From the NCBI RefSeq assembly GCF_988242995.1, contig NZ_OZ547043.1: a stretch of 64,000 nucleotides of DNA; one strand, 5' to 3'. The position numbers and the translations under genes were made by a program. How positions within the stretch are numbered: position 1 is the stretch's first letter; every line of letters starts with the position of its first letter. This document shows positions 19,212 to 48,316 of the stretch, one piece after another. The notes under the pieces are model-generated. The model made no database searches and was not told the DNA's origin. It saw nothing but the letters and a program-made list of their open reading frames with translations.

Positions 19212-19892
19212 TTATCGCCGCGAGCGCACAATCTGATACCGACGAGTAAAGTACTCAAACGGCGCGCTCCACACATGCACCAGTCGGGTGAACGGGAAGA
19301 GCAGGAAGATGGTCATTCCCAACACCAGATGCAGGCGGAAAACGAACGCTACGCCGTTAAGCATTTCTGACGATCCACCACGGAAAGTGACAATGCTTTG
19401 CGCCCAACCCACCAGCTTCATCATTTCGCTACCATCAGGATACTGTGCTGAAAACGGTATGGTACTTAGCCCCAGCAGACACTGAATCAGCAAAATGATC
19501 ATGATGATAATATCCGGCGTAGTGGAAGTGGCACGCACGCGCTGATTTGTCAGCCTGCGCCACAGCAGTCCTGCGCCGCCAATCAGCGTCAATACACCGC
19601 AAATACCACCGAGCACCATCGCCATCTGCTGTTTTACCGCCACCGGCAGAAACCACGCGTACATCCAGTGCGGCGTTAACATGCCGAACAGGTGCCCGAA
19701 GAAAATCCCCAAAATGCCGATATGGAACAGATTCGACCATATCACCATCCCGCGTTTATCGAGCATCTGACTCGAGGAGGCGCGCCAGGTATACTGCCCG
19801 TAGTCGTAGCGCAGCCAGCTGCCGAGGAAAAACACTGTCGCACAAATGTACGGGTAGATATCATAAAAAAAGACGTTCAGATACTGAATCAT
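19212..19892 (-). CDS. narV: Respiratory nitrate reductase Z, gamma (cytochrome b) subunit
   Basis: 226-aa membrane protein with conserved haem-ligand histidines; last gene of narZYWV. Confidence 0.9.
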
Positions 19893-42459: not shown

Positions 42460-42891
42460 ATGACAATCCATAAGAAAGGTCAGGCACACTGGGAAGGCGA
42501 TATCAAACGCGGGAAGGGAACTGTATCCACCGAGAGCGGCGTGCTGAACCAACAGCCGTATGGATTTAACACGCGTTTTGAAGGCGAAAAAGGAACCAAC
42601 CCTGAAGAACTGATTGGCGCAGCGCATGCCGCATGTTTCTCAATGGCGCTTTCATTAATGCTGGGGGAAGCGGGATTCACGCCAACATCGATTGATACCA
42701 CCGCAGATGTGTCGCTGGATAAAGTGGATGCCGGTTTTGCGATTACTAAAATCGCACTGAAGAGCGAAGTTGCGGTGCCGGGTATTGATGCCTCTACTTT
42801 TGACGGCATTATCCAGAAAGCAAAAGCAGGATGCCCGGTTTCTCAGGTACTGAAAGCTGAAATTACGCTTGATTACCAGTTGAAATCGTAA
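42460..42891 (+). CDS. osmC: Osmotically inducible peroxiredoxin (OsmC/Ohr family)
   Basis: 143-aa ORF with the two conserved cysteines of OsmC-family peroxidases (…AHAACFSM… and …KAGCPVSQ…). Confidence 0.9.
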   Translation: MTIHKKGQAHWEGDIKRGKGTVSTESGVLNQQPYGFNTRFEGEKGTNPEELIGAAHAACFSMALSLMLGEAGFTPTSIDTTADVSLDKVDAGFAITKIALKSEVAVPGIDASTFDGIIQKAKAGCPVSQVLKAEITLDYQLKS

Positions 42892-42946
42892 AGCGTTGCC
42901 GTATGACGCGTCAGGCGCGTGATTGCCTGATGCGTTGTTAGCATCT

Positions 42947-43873
42947 CTACAGCGCCCGCCAGCACCGGATCTCACGTCCGTCCTCCCTTATTGTTAATGA
43001 TTGCCGGACTTCACATCCGTCGGTTGCCAGAGGGCAGCGTTCGCGGAAAAAACAGCCTTGTGGCAACGTGCGGTTTCCTGGTAGATCCGTTTTACGTAAT
43101 GCCCATTCTTCCTCCAGCGGTTTATCAATGGCGGGGAGGGAATCCAGCAATAATCGGGTGTATGGATGTGCCGGAGCTGTCAGCACCTGTTGCGCGTCTC
43201 CTAGTTCCACAATCTGCCCGAGATACATCACCGCCACCCGATCGCTCATATGACGTATCACCGAGACATTGTGTGAAATCAGCACATAAGTCAGCTCGCG
43301 ATTTTCCTGTAGCGTTACCAGTAAATTGAGGATCTGCGCCTGCACGGAGATATCCAGCGCCGAGGTTGGTTCATCAAGCACAATCACGTCAGGCTGCGAA
43401 GAGAGTGCTCTGGCAATGGCGATACGTTGCCGCTGCCCGCCTGAGAACGCATAAGGCAAGCGGTCGAGATACTCCGGACGAATACCCACCTGCACAGCCA
43501 GCTCCTCTGCCAACGCTCGCCGCTGTTGTTCACTACTACGCTTAGCAATCCAGAGCGGTTCCGTGATGATGCGCCACACCGGTAAGCGCGGATTAAGCGA
43601 AGAGAGCGGGTCCTGAAACACCATCTGCATAATGCGTTGTGATCCTGAACGGATGTACTGCCCGTGGCTCGGTTGCAGCATACCCATTAAAAGCTGTGCG
43701 AGGGTGCTTTTGCCGCAGCCTGACTCACCGACGATCCCTAAGGTTTCGCCACGACGGATCTGTAAATCAATACCATTGATGGCATGAACATGTTCCGTAG
43801 TTTTACCAAGCCAGTTTTTTCGGCCCGGGAAATTGATATGGACGTCGCGTAACGTTAATAACGTGTCAGACAC
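42947..43873 (-). CDS. ddpF: D,D-dipeptide ABC transporter ATP-binding protein
   Basis: Likely GTG start at 43871-43873 (VSDTLLTLRDVHINF…), overlapping the ddpD stop; Walker A GESGCGKST, signature LSGGQRQR, Walker B VIVLDEPTSALD; 308 aa. Confidence 0.85.
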   Translation of the reverse strand: MSDTLLTLRDVHINFPGRKNWLGKTTEHVHAINGIDLQIRRGETLGIVGESGCGKSTLAQLLMGMLQPSHGQYIRSGSQRIMQMVFQDPLSSLNPRLPVWRIITEPLWIAKRSSEQQRRALAEELAVQVGIRPEYLDRLPYAFSGGQRQRIAIARALSSQPDVIVLDEPTSALDISVQAQILNLLVTLQENRELTYVLISHNVSVIRHMSDRVAVMYLGQIVELGDAQQVLTAPAHPYTRLLLDSLPAIDKPLEEEWALRKTDLPGNRTLPQGCFFRERCPLATDGCEVRQSLTIREDGREIRCWRAL

Positions 43874-44852
43874 TAATGACCTCCTGCTGAGGATACCAAC
43901 AGGCGCAGCGGTGGTTGTTGTCACTACACGCTGTCAGCGCCGGGACGTTTTCACACTGTGCACCTGCCGCATAGCAACGATCGCGAAAAGCGCAGCCGTC
44001 AGGCAAATGGGTGAGGTTTGGTACCGTCCCCGGAATAGCGGGTAATGGCTGGCGCGGTATTCCATGTTCCGGTGCGCATTGCAGCAAACCAATGGTATAC
44101 GGATGCCGGGGATGATGGATAACGTCTGCCGTCACGCCGCTCTCAATCACGCTTCCGGCATACATCACGTAAACGCTATCGCACAGTTGCGACACCACGG
44201 CCATATCATGGCTGATGAACAGTACCGCAGTTCCACTGGCGCGGGCTTTATGTTTAAGCAGACGCAGTACCTGCAACTGTACCGTGACGTCCAGCGCCGT
44301 AGTCGGTTCGTCGGCAATAATCAATTGCGGCTCGCAGGAGAATGCCAGCGCAATCATTACCCGTTGGCGCATACCACCTGAAAGCTCAAACGGATAGCGC
44401 GACATAACTTCCACGGCATCCGGGATTTGCATCTCTTCCAGCAGGGCAATCGCTTTAGCTCTGGCTTCCCGACGACTTATTGGTTGATGATGGCGGATCA
44501 CGTCCATCATCTGAAGACCTATTCGACGTGTCGGATTAAGGGCGGTCATCGGTTCCTGAAAGATCATCGCCACTCGTGCGCCGCGCCACTGACGAAGCTG
44601 CTTTTCCCGAGCGTTAAGAGCATCTTCTCCCAGCAGTGAAATATGTCCCCGATCTACGCAATAACTGCCCGTCGGTAGCAGACGCATAATCAACATTGCA
44701 GTGACTGATTTACCTGAGCCGGATTCTCCCACCAGACCGACAATTTCACCGCGGTTAATCTGCAAGGACACATTGTTGAGCGCGTGAACATCACCGTTAA
44801 AACCGGGGAAACTCAAATGCAGCTGTTGAATGTCCAGAACGGGTTGGGTCAT
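43866..44852 (-). CDS. ddpD: D,D-dipeptide ABC transporter ATP-binding protein
   Basis: 328-aa ORF; Walker A GESGSGKSV, signature LSGGMRQR, Walker B LIIADEPTTALD. Confidence 0.9.
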   Translation of the reverse strand: MTQPVLDIQQLHLSFPGFNGDVHALNNVSLQINRGEIVGLVGESGSGKSVTAMLIMRLLPTGSYCVDRGHISLLGEDALNAREKQLRQWRGARVAMIFQEPMTALNPTRRIGLQMMDVIRHHQPISRREARAKAIALLEEMQIPDAVEVMSRYPFELSGGMRQRVMIALAFSCEPQLIIADEPTTALDVTVQLQVLRLLKHKARASGTAVLFISHDMAVVSQLCDSVYVMYAGSVIESGVTADVIHHPRHPYTIGLLQCAPEHGIPRQPLPAIPGTVPNLTHLPDGCAFRDRCYAAGAQCENVPALTACSDNNHRCACWYPQQEVISV

Positions 44853-45745
44853 GACTGCTTTCCTCCTGCTTTCGGGTCAAGCAGATCGCGAATACCATCA
44901 CCAAAGAGATTAAACCCGACGGCGGTAAGCAAAATCGCTGCCCCCGGAAATGCGCAATACCACCATTGATCGAGCACATAGTTGCGACCATTCGCCACCA
45001 TCGCTCCCCATTCAGCACTCGGTTGTTGAGCACCCAGGCCAATAAATCCCAACGTGGCGGCCATTAAAATCGCGCTACCAATATCCAGCGATGCCTGCAC
45101 AATCAGCGGCGGCAGCGAGTTACGTAAAATATGCCAGTTGATCAGATGCCAGCGTGACGCACCAAAGGTTTTCGCCGCCTGAACGTAAGTGTACTGGCGG
45201 ACAACTAATGTTTGCCCCCGCGCCAGGCGCACATAAAAGGGAATTCGCACAATAGCAATCGCCAGCATGGCGTTAAACAAACTCGGCCCGAGAGCGGCTG
45301 CCAGTGCCATTGTCAGCACCAGCGAAGGAATCGACAGCATAATGTCCATGATGCGCATGATAATCGCGTCTGCGCGTCCGCCAAGCACACCGGATAGACA
45401 CCCGAGTAGCGACCCCATCATACCTGCAATGGCGACCACCACTAATCCGGCGAGAATTGATTGCTGACTGCCGACCAGTACGCGGCTAAACAGATCGCGT
45501 CCCACTTCATCGGTGCCAAACCAGTGCGCCGCAGAAGGCGGCAAAAGGCGGGCGGTTAAATCAATGGCGTTGGGATCATGCGTCGCCAGCCACGGTGAAA
45601 AAATCATCATCAGTAGCATTAATACAATGATGACTGCGCCGGTCACGGTAAGCGGGCTGCCTTTCAGCATCCATACCAGTTTTGCACCGTTAAATCGCGT
45701 TTGTTTTTGTGGGCGTACGGCGGACGTTTCCTCGCTTAGCATCAT
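44849..45745 (-). CDS. ddpC: D,D-dipeptide ABC transporter permease
   Basis: 298-aa membrane ORF; overlaps ddpD and ddpB by 4 nt each. Confidence 0.9.
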   Translation of the reverse strand: MMLSEETSAVRPQKQTRFNGAKLVWMLKGSPLTVTGAVIIVLMLLMMIFSPWLATHDPNAIDLTARLLPPSAAHWFGTDEVGRDLFSRVLVGSQQSILAGLVVVAIAGMMGSLLGCLSGVLGGRADAIIMRIMDIMLSIPSLVLTMALAAALGPSLFNAMLAIAIVRIPFYVRLARGQTLVVRQYTYVQAAKTFGASRWHLINWHILRNSLPPLIVQASLDIGSAILMAATLGFIGLGAQQPSAEWGAMVANGRNYVLDQWWYCAFPGAAILLTAVGFNLFGDGIRDLLDPKAGGKQS

Positions 45746-46764
45746 TCACCACCTCCACGTCCGATACGCGGATCAATCCACAAATAGAGCAAATCCACCA
45801 CCAGGTTCACCAGCACATAAGCAAACGAAACCACGACGGCAAATCCCATCACCGCAGGGAAGTCGAGCGCCTGTATTGATGTCACTACCCATGCCCCCAT
45901 TCCGGGCCAGGCAAAAACGGTTTCGGTGAGCACTGCGCCATACAACAAATCGCCCAGCGCCAGCCCCAATACGGTAATCGAGGGGATCAACGCATTCGGT
46001 AGCGCATAACATAAAACGATATACCAGCCGGGCAAGCCGCTGGCCCGGGCGGTACGAATGTAATCTTCACTCAATTGTTCCAGCATCGCTGAACGGATCT
46101 GGCGAGCGACAATTCCCAGGTGAACGAACGCCAGCGTTAATGCCGGTAAGATGAGATGTTGCAGCGCATTGAAGAAGACTTCACCGTTGCCTTCAAGCAG
46201 CGCATCGAGCAGATAAAAGCCGGTAACGTGCGTTGGTGGATCCAGCCAGTCATCAAGCCTTCCGCCGCCGGGAAGAATTTGCAGATGACCATAAAACAGC
46301 ACAATGACACCCAGCCCAAGCCAGAACGCAGGTGTGGAGATTCCGGTAATGGCCATTATTCGCACCAGATGATCCAGCCAGCGATTTCGCCAGACTGCAG
46401 AGAGTATGCCCAGCGGGATGCCAATCAGGAGTGCCAGCAGCAGGGCACAAAAAGCCAGTTCCAGCGTCGCCGGGAAAAATATGCGCAACTCTTCCAGCAC
46501 CGGACGCCCGGTACGAATGGATGTTCCCAGGTCACCCTGAAACAGGTCGCTGACGTAGCGGTAAAACTGTACATACAGTGGCTGGTCCAGTCCCAGTTGC
46601 TGGCGAATATTATCCACGATAGCATCGCTGGCGCGGTCACCCGCCAGTAACCGCGCCGGATCGCCGGGGATCAGGTGCGAGATAATAAACGTAATCACAC
46701 AGACGCCCGCCACCACGAGCACCAGCCCCCAGCAGCGTTGGCGTAAAATACTCCAGAAGGTCAC
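45742..46764 (-). CDS. ddpB: D,D-dipeptide ABC transporter permease
   Basis: 340-aa membrane ORF of the DppB/OppB type. Confidence 0.9.
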   Translation of the reverse strand: MTFWSILRQRCWGLVLVVAGVCVITFIISHLIPGDPARLLAGDRASDAIVDNIRQQLGLDQPLYVQFYRYVSDLFQGDLGTSIRTGRPVLEELRIFFPATLELAFCALLLALLIGIPLGILSAVWRNRWLDHLVRIMAITGISTPAFWLGLGVIVLFYGHLQILPGGGRLDDWLDPPTHVTGFYLLDALLEGNGEVFFNALQHLILPALTLAFVHLGIVARQIRSAMLEQLSEDYIRTARASGLPGWYIVLCYALPNALIPSITVLGLALGDLLYGAVLTETVFAWPGMGAWVVTSIQALDFPAVMGFAVVVSFAYVLVNLVVDLLYLWIDPRIGRGGGE

Positions 46765-46765
46765 G

Positions 46766-48316
46766 TTATTTACTCATGGTATTGATATTGAAGACCTGTT
46801 CCAGCATGGGATTGAACACAAAGCCTTTCACCTCTTTGTTCATCGCCAGTTGGTAGTTTTTCTGGAACAGGTACACATAAGCAGCGTCATCAATGACGAT
46901 TTTCTGTGCCTGCTGGTAGTCCCGGGTACGCTGCGTCTGGTCGGTGGTCGCTAGCGCATTGCGCAGTAACTTATCGACCTCACTGTTTTCATAGAACGAG
47001 CGGTTACCCGGCAGACCTTTTTTGTCTGACTCAAACCAGTAATTCATAAACATATACGGGTCGGCAAAATCCGGACTCCAGTTGCCAATCGCAATGTCGT
47101 AATCACCTTTACCCACTCTGTCGCGCATGGTGGCGTTCGCCAGTTTTTCCAGCTTCACATTGATGCCCAGCTTGTTGAGACTGGATTGTGTCGCCAGAGC
47201 GATCGGTTCCCAGTTCGGGTCGTTATCGGAGTAGAGAAACGTCAGGCTGGTGGGTTTGCTCGTCACTTTATCCCATTCGGCTTTGGCTTTCGTTTCGTCA
47301 TGGTTGTATTGCATTGCCGTCGCATCGTATCCCCACATGCCTTCCGGAATCGGGCCGCGCATTTGTTTTCCGTTACCACTCAGAATGCCGTTAACCATAC
47401 CCTGATAATCGGTAGACCAGGAAATGGCCCGACGCAGATCCGCCTGATTAAGCGGCGCTTTGCTGTTATTCAGATACAGATAGGTGACGCGTAGTGACGG
47501 ATACTCTGCCACGTTGACTTTGTTTTCCTGCTTCAGTGCGTTGAGTTGATCCACCGGCAGCGCATCGGCAATGTCAATGTCGCCACGGGAGAGTTGCAGG
47601 CGACGGGAGGCACTTTCACCGATAATTTTTACCGATACCCGTTTAAAGTTCGGTTTATTGCCAGGGTAATGCGGATTTGGCACCAGAACTAATTGCTGAC
47701 CTTTTTGCCAGCTTTTCAGCATAAACGGTCCGGAGCCAGCGGTATTTTGCGCGAGGAAACCACGGGCATCATCGGCCGCATGTTCCTTTAAGACCGCCGG
47801 ATTGATAATGGATGCACCGTCATTCGCCAGCGTATAGAGGAACGGTGCGAATGGCTGGCTAAGGGTAAACCTCACTGTATGTTCGTCGGGAGCATCAATC
47901 TTTAAATCTTTGGGAAATGCTTCTGCTGGCCCCTGGCCGATTTTTAGTAACCGCTCAAAAGAGAGTTTTACTGCTTCGGCAGTGACAGGTGTGCCATCGG
48001 CAAATTTAGCATTGTCCTTCAGGGTGAACGTCCACTCTTTTTGATCGTCAGACGCTTTCCAGCTACTCGCCAGATCGCCTTCAACGTCGGTTGAGCCTTT
48101 ATCACCGTCCGTTTTGTACTGAACCAGTCGCTGATAAGACGGGTAGGTCACTGTCCAGTCGTTATTATCAATTGTCACCGCTGGGTCGAGGGTTTGTGGG
48201 TCGGCAGCTTTACCGATCACCAGCATATCTTTCGGTACGGCGGCGTGCGCAACCGGCATTGTTGTGGCAAGGACGATCGCGAGCAATGTAGGACGAAACG
48301 AAATCGATCTCTTCAT
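46766..48316 (-). CDS. ddpA: D,D-dipeptide periplasmic substrate-binding protein
   Basis: ATG at 48314-48316 gives MKRSISFRPTLLAIVLATTMPVAHA… (516 aa) with a signal peptide; SBP family-5 fold. Confidence 0.9.
   Translation of the reverse strand: MKRSISFRPTLLAIVLATTMPVAHAAVPKDMLVIGKAADPQTLDPAVTIDNNDWTVTYPSYQRLVQYKTDGDKGSTDVEGDLASSWKASDDQKEWTFTLKDNAKFADGTPVTAEAVKLSFERLLKIGQGPAEAFPKDLKIDAPDEHTVRFTLSQPFAPFLYTLANDGASIINPAVLKEHAADDARGFLAQNTAGSGPFMLKSWQKGQQLVLVPNPHYPGNKPNFKRVSVKIIGESASRRLQLSRGDIDIADALPVDQLNALKQENKVNVAEYPSLRVTYLYLNNSKAPLNQADLRRAISWSTDYQGMVNGILSGNGKQMRGPIPEGMWGYDATAMQYNHDETKAKAEWDKVTSKPTSLTFLYSDNDPNWEPIALATQSSLNKLGINVKLEKLANATMRDRVGKGDYDIAIGNWSPDFADPYMFMNYWFESDKKGLPGNRSFYENSEVDKLLRNALATTDQTQRTRDYQQAQKIVIDDAAYVYLFQKNYQLAMNKEVKGFVFNPMLEQVFNINTMSK

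Follow-up and report, generated by a model that had tools for sequence, protein, structure and literature searches.

The ddpF gene of Escherichia coli starts at a GTG codon 8 nt inside ddpD, and a synonymous ddpD change accounts for the longer reading frame of one lineage

Gene order and layout of the ddpD/ddpF junction

The window analysed here is a stretch of 64,000 nucleotides of contig NZ_OZ547043.1 (assembly GCF_988242995.1). In it, ddpF closes the ddpXABCDF operon and lies between ddpD and osmC, in the same order as in K-12 and AF39. Both ddpF (42947..43873, minus strand; 927 nt, 308 aa plus stop) and ddpD (43866..44852, minus strand; 987 nt, 328 aa plus stop, ATG start) encode ABC-transporter ATPases.

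On the minus strand the junction reads 5'-...CCTCAGCAGGAGGTCATTA GTG TC TGA CACG...-3', with cagcAGGAGGtcatta as the bases before GTG. The ddpF start codon is GTG (43871..43873, minus strand), decoded as fMet according to the sequence, the annotation and the peptide MSDTLLTLR. Two bases (TC) separate it from the ddpD stop codon TGA read from the sequence (43866..43868, minus strand), which begins 5 nt after the first base of the GTG. The overlap of the two ORFs, GTGTCTGA (43866..43873, minus strand), is thus 8 nt long and has the form NTGNNTGA of the "−8 nt" spacing class. A preliminary description of this DNA had the GTG overlapping the ddpD TGA; the ORFs do overlap by 8 nt, but the two codons share no bases. 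The Shine-Dalgarno (SD) sequence of ddpF, AGGAGG (43880..43885, minus strand), lies within the ddpD coding sequence, 6 nt 5' of the GTG. The triplet that abuts the GTG in the ddpF frame is TTA (43874..43876, minus strand), where K-12 has the stop codon TAA.

According to the ORF listing of the window, the longest ddpF ORF spans 42947..43924 on the minus strand (325 aa, GTG start). It therefore extends 17 codons into ddpD beyond the GTG at 43873, as the preliminary description had stated. The codon that opens it (43922..43924, minus strand; no SD), given there as ATG, reads GTG in the sequence and lies 51 nt (17 codons) 5' of the inner GTG. The 17 codons added in this way, VTTTTAAPVGILSRRSL (43874..43924, minus strand), are the 3' end of ddpD. 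Two positions for the ddpF start have accordingly to be compared, the inner GTG and the outer GTG at 43924-43922; the latter would give a 325-aa protein with a 17-residue extension and the N-terminus (M)TTTTAAPVGILSR.

Tight junctions are found elsewhere in the two operons. ATGA motifs form 4-nt overlaps at the ddpC stop/ddpD start (44849..44852, minus strand), the ddpB stop/ddpC start (45742..45745, minus strand) and the narW stop/narV start (19889..19892, minus strand), and the sequence shows a further one at narZ/narY (22125-22128). The narY and narW genes overlap by 1 nt in TAATG (20584), and ddpA and ddpB are separated by a 1-nt gap in TAAC GTG (46762-46768, minus strand), where ddpB starts with GTG. 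The ddpC/ddpB, ddpD/ddpC and narV/narW overlaps, to which the ddpF junction had been likened, are real. However, the other ddp and nar junctions belong to the commoner −4 (ATGA) or −1 class, and the ddpF junction, unlike ATGA, involves no sharing of bases between start and stop codons. The ddpB gene has the second non-ATG start in the ddp operon, with a near-absent SD (−2.2 kcal/mol). The longest narZ ORF (22125-25988, minus strand) encodes 1287 aa, compared to 3741 nt (1246 aa) in the K-12 annotation, and is therefore another longest ORF that exceeds the annotated gene.

Annotation and family assignment

In RefSeq K-12 MG1655, ddpF (b1483) is annotated as a 927-nt gene with an 8-nt overlap with ddpD (b1484). 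PGAP places the start at the same inner GTG, with the same length and overlap, in 10 strains, among them AF39 (99.4% identical to the window) and eight further strains spread across the identity range. Three of the PGAP strains carry the open-frame allele of the window and are still annotated with the short ddpF, which counts against the outer GTG. NCBI and UniRef contain the exact 308-aa DdpF, from 232 contigs, while the 325-aa form is absent from a collection of 15 billion proteins. The window gene was identified as ddpF by its 308-aa product, beginning MSDTLLTLR and read from a GTG 8 nt inside ddpD. A full-text literature search for "ddpF" yielded no text on where the gene starts; most of its hits were acronyms with another meaning.

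The K-12 gene (b1483, yddO; UniProt P77622, 308 aa; NC_000913.3) resembles that of the window in operon position, GTG start, 8-nt overlap and N-terminus MSDTLLTLRDVHINF. Residue 17 of DdpF is G in the window and A in K-12. The two also differ directly before the GTG, with TAA in K-12 and TTA in the window, so the longer ORF exists in the window lineage only.

DdpF scored above the gathering cut-offs for both ABC_tran (PF00005; 101.8 bits, cut-off 25) and oligo_HPY (PF08352; 73.4 bits, cut-off 27.1), and DdpD carries the same two domains. This two-ATPase architecture, ABC_tran with a C-terminal oligo_HPY domain, is common to DppD/DppF and OppD/OppF. The best NCBIfam matches of DdpD and DdpF were OppD/OppF/DppF-type models (for DdpF, PRK11308, OppF and DppF), all below the curated cut-offs. 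DdpF reached 264.8 against a cut-off of 660 for the DppF equivalog NF043071 and 315.6 against 408 for PRK11308. On these scores both DdpD and DdpF are paralogues of those transporters, and DdpF is neither DppF nor OppF. Counted on the 325-aa translation, alignments to the family profiles PRK11308, DppF, GsiA and YejF open at residue 19, equivalent to residue 2 in the 308-aa form; the 17 extra N-terminal residues therefore match nothing. The annotated length and the onset of profile homology thus bear out the earlier statement that product length and conserved N-terminus fit the inner GTG, and they argue against the outer one.

The 90% cluster that contains the window DdpF also includes a 327-aa protein (WP_265167288.1), a ddpF variant in which an unrelated 24-residue N-terminus is joined at residue 6 (…TKSHP/LTLRDVHINF). 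A few E. coli strains presumably carry it as an allele formed by deletion or fusion.

Start-site signals

Pairing of the 3' end of 16S rRNA with the 20 nt that precede the inner GTG (AGGAGG, 6-nt spacer) has a predicted energy of −11.0 kcal/mol, compared to −1.7 kcal/mol at the outer GTG, which thus has no SD. Values for other genes of the window were similar to that of the inner GTG: −10.3 for ddpD, −10.6 for ddpC, −11.6 for narV, −10.0 for narW and −10.3 kcal/mol for narY. Since just 2% of 20-nt windows across ddpD and ddpF reach −9 kcal/mol or better, the ddpF signal exceeds chance.

No in-frame ATG, GTG or TTG follows the inner GTG before codon 63, which lies beyond the Walker A motif, and a start further downstream was rejected on this ground. 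Dual-frame initiation at AUGUG/GUGUG (PMC9841429) is inapplicable, as the ddpF site reads GUGUC.

Junction alleles in E. coli

Of 5426 complete E. coli genomes, 5409 match positions 42800-45000 of the window, and the genes annotated beneath the match are ddpF, ddpD, ddpC and osmC. DNA identity to typical E. coli, including BL21, is about 96.5%. Only one complete genome, AF39 (99.4%), reaches ≥99% identity, most falling between 95 and 99%; the ddp alleles of the window represent a minority lineage, and its junction allele is common to 650 genomes.

Coverage of this segment was uneven. Only 4275 of the 5409 matching genomes cover ≥80% of it, and the weakest matches listed reach just the 136-nt osmC end; consequently, about one in five complete E. 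coli genomes appears to lack the ddpD-ddpF region or to have lost it by deletion. A shortened ATPase gene adjoins dosC in O157:H7 FRIK804, and the ddpD of OkiPb01717 is a pseudogene with a frameshift.

An alignment of 11 junctions separated two states. In seven of them (K-12, BL21, S3, O111:H8, O55:H7, OkiPb01717 and 572) the sequence reads ...ATAA GTG, with an in-frame TAA before the ddpF GTG, whereas the window, AF39, PRO_A-1401 and HS-02 read ...ATTA GTG, with no in-frame stop. The difference corresponds to ATA versus ATT at Ile-326 of ddpD and is synonymous in that gene.

The junction alleles were then typed across the complete E. coli genomes using allele-specific 36-nt megablast queries, in which each 28-nt seed spans variable bases. 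The window type (TTA) was found in 650 genomes, TCATAA in 1997 and the K-12 type TTATAA in 1270. TAA thus directly precedes the ddpF GTG in at least 3267 of 3917 typed genomes, K-12 among them, and at least 83% of those typed cannot use any upstream ddpF start. An open frame upstream of the GTG, as seen in the window and about 650 E. coli genomes, favours the outer GTG, as does the fact that this codon begins the longest ddpF ORF of the window. The longer ORF in the window lineage (about 17% of typed genomes) results from the use of ATT for Ile-326 of ddpD, which turns TAA into TTA.

Over the 51-nt extension, the window differs from K-12 at five positions. Read in the ddpD frame, four of these leave the amino acid unchanged; read in the ddpF frame, each of the five alters a residue or creates a stop, a pattern that points to selection on the ddpD frame only. 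Judged from these sequences, the 17-codon extension is non-coding in the ddpF frame and is simply the 3' end of ddpD.

The start codon was GTG among the E. coli ddpF alleles found. A GTDB representative labelled E. coli (NZ_JAATUR010000023.1; 93% protein identity) has an ATG start. None of the 5426 complete E. coli genomes has its junction allele, and this representative therefore probably belongs to a divergent Escherichia lineage.

Orthologues in other genera

A scan of GTDB species representatives for orthologues returned 80 loci. The closest ddpF orthologues came from divergent Escherichia, three Citrobacter, Enterobacter cloacae, Tatumella morbirosei, Pluralibacter gergoviae and two more distant proteobacterial MAGs. 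These carry ATG at the codon homologous to the window GTG, in the motif ATG[T/A]CTGA with the same 8-nt overlap, and their N-terminus is M-[S/T]-[D/E]. In Citrobacter sp. FP75, C. werkmanii and E. cloacae the homologous ATG is the sole ATG, GTG or TTG between an in-frame stop and the conserved N-terminus. The occurrence of ATG[T/A]CTGA in other genera indicates that the 8-nt overlap is a conserved feature of the ATPase pair of this transporter. In contrast to the overlap, the 17-residue extension was conserved in none of the closest orthologues examined, a further point against the outer GTG.

Published experimental data

The TRAINSPOTTER study (PMC13245402, NAR 2026) applied deformylation-assisted N-terminomics to the K-12-derived strain CAG12184, in NC_000913 coordinates. 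It lists the b1483 start as database-annotated, a GTG at 1558038, with the peptide MSDTLLTLR (residues 1-9). Reading of a GTG codon as Met marks it as an initiation codon, since an internal GTG, as the inner codon would be in the 325-aa form, would read Val. The N-terminomic evidence for this GTG consists of one 9-residue peptide from a K-12-derived strain, which differs from the window strain. The N-terminal proteomics that the preliminary description had named as a check is thus already in print. For ribosome profiling, its other check, the study gives Ribo-seq elongation support (REPARATION) for ddpF at the inner GTG, with no Ribo-RET evidence listed for this start in Table S1 (PMC13245402).

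Taken together, annotation, comparative genomics and the published N-terminal peptide show where ddpF starts. The GTG at 43871-43873, proposed as the start in the preliminary description, is supported by five independent kinds of evidence, namely annotation, alleles, orthologues, profiles and N-terminomics. The outer GTG was rejected as a start: it has no SD, is blocked by TAA in most strains, is unconserved and gives a product not in the databases, and we consider it extremely improbable that ddpF begins there. A trace of initiation at GTG 43924 may still occur, at low probability, in the window lineage, where the upstream frame is open.

Table S2 of the same study reports a second initiator-Met peptide of K-12 ddpF, MLRDVHINFPAR (residues 7-18), assigned to a near-cognate ACG at 1558020 (PMC13245402). 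The corresponding ACG in the window is ddpF codon 7 (43853..43855, minus strand). Two starts, the GTG and a minor one at this ACG, would yield an additional proteoform lacking six residues, and the peptide speaks for such an arrangement. It is one peptide-level call, however; ACG is a very weak initiator, and no SD lies at a suitable spacing, the AGGAGG being 24 nt off. We therefore regard a second start as quite unlikely, and it would supplement, not replace, initiation at the inner GTG.

INRI-seq profiles initiation in vitro on synthetic transcripts that begin 30 nt 5' of each start codon (PMC9825163). The ddpF start gave 0 CPM in all five replicates, compared to 77-120 CPM for ddpD, 26-42 for ddpB and ≥59 for ddpA in the replicates shown; according to the authors, starts left undetected tend toward more structure (PMC9825163). 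In the same assay the annotated start of K-12 ddpB was detected, and a further peak fell on an ATG at −13 that is out of frame. The silence of the ddpF GTG in vitro and its missing Ribo-RET entry count against the inner start. The ddp operon was probably poorly expressed under the conditions of the published studies. Its inducing conditions are stationary phase or nitrogen limitation.

Spacing class, RNA structure and coupling to ddpD

The overlap GTGTCTGA fits exactly the motif of −8 nt NTGNNTGA pairs (Huber et al. 2023, PMC10666635; Brown & Wade 2025, PMC12548453). This class is one of three overlap classes enriched among co-directional pairs, alongside −4 and −1, and has been discussed in the context of coupling via RNA unfolding and/or ribosome re-initiation (PMC12548453). 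The ddpD/ddpF pair has the defining features of the class, as the genes are co-directional and the start codon lies 5 nt before the TGA of the upstream gene. Like other −8 nt pairs, ddpD and ddpF encode two subunits of one complex. The ddpF SD (AGGAGG, −11.0 kcal/mol) likewise lies within the coding sequence of the upstream gene, as expected of a translationally coupled pair.

The segment from −30 to +15 of ddpF has a predicted fold of −12.8 kcal/mol (−12 to −13 across E. coli), compared to −2 to −10 kcal/mol for the other ddp starts. A hairpin of 8 bp is predicted, CCUGUUGG/UCAGCAGG (43883..43903, minus strand), whose 3' arm lies over the first half of the ddpF SD and pairs the first AGG. The fold was not significant against shuffled sequences (z = −0.52), and 25% of coding-background windows fold as well. 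The hairpin is Escherichia-specific, being absent in Citrobacter, Enterobacter, Tatumella and Pluralibacter. A conserved regulatory RNA at the junction was therefore rejected, with neither significance against shuffles nor retention in other genera. The predicted hairpin may contribute in Escherichia; since it is neither statistically unusual nor conserved outside this genus, its role may also be incidental.

Two routes could connect the genes. A ribosome ending ddpD at the TGA would cover both the GTG and the SD of ddpF, and could re-initiate at the GTG 5 nt back. Alternatively, a ribosome translating ddpD could open the hairpin in which half of the SD is buried. In both cases the production of DdpF would be linked to that of DdpD, an arrangement that would suit two ATPase subunits of one transporter. 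The silence of the ddpF start in INRI-seq and the predicted structure fit such a dependence on ddpD translation.

The alternative is that 30S subunits initiate de novo at the inner GTG on the strong SD, with the 8-nt overlap reflecting genome compaction and no coupling. An AGGAGG at optimal spacing would normally be enough for a de novo start, and the hairpin is neither significant nor conserved. However, the isolated ddpF start was silent in INRI-seq despite its strong SD, and the −8 overlap is kept across genera, in a spacing class enriched in coupled pairs. In addition, termination at the TGA leaves the ribosome physically over the GTG and SD, which means that ddpD termination and ddpF initiation cannot be independent in time. 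Initiation free of ddpD translation thus appears rather unlikely. Translational coupling of ddpF to ddpD, which we infer from these features, is likely but unproven, and fits the known −4/−8 spacing classes (PMC12548453). A stricter form, in which ddpF initiation is silent alone and obligate on ddpD ribosomes through the hairpin and/or re-initiation, with the minor codon-7 ACG adding a proteoform, is put forward only tentatively as a possibility that we doubt.

With high confidence, then, ddpF is translated from the GTG at 43873-43871 into a 308-aa protein, the 17-codon extension being a non-coding product of the ATT allele, and with coupling to ddpD as the inferred relationship between the two genes. 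This protein of the D,D-dipeptide transport operon ddpXABCDF begins fMet-Ser-Asp-Thr-Leu-Leu.

Implications

The inner-GTG start of ddpF is already known, as it coincides with the reference annotation and with published proteomics. What the present analysis adds is limited to why the window shows a longer ORF, namely a synonymous substitution in ddpD that is specific to its lineage. Since this change removes the in-frame stop abutting the true start, choosing the longest ORF would wrongly make ddpF a 325-aa protein in about one sixth of E. coli genomes. The case matters as annotation hygiene only, and the reference annotation, PGAP and the 2026 N-terminomics set are already right. It illustrates that a polymorphism between sister strains, here TAA versus TTA, can decide which of two candidate starts is used, and that the ATPase pairs of peptide transporters retain a conserved −8 overlap.
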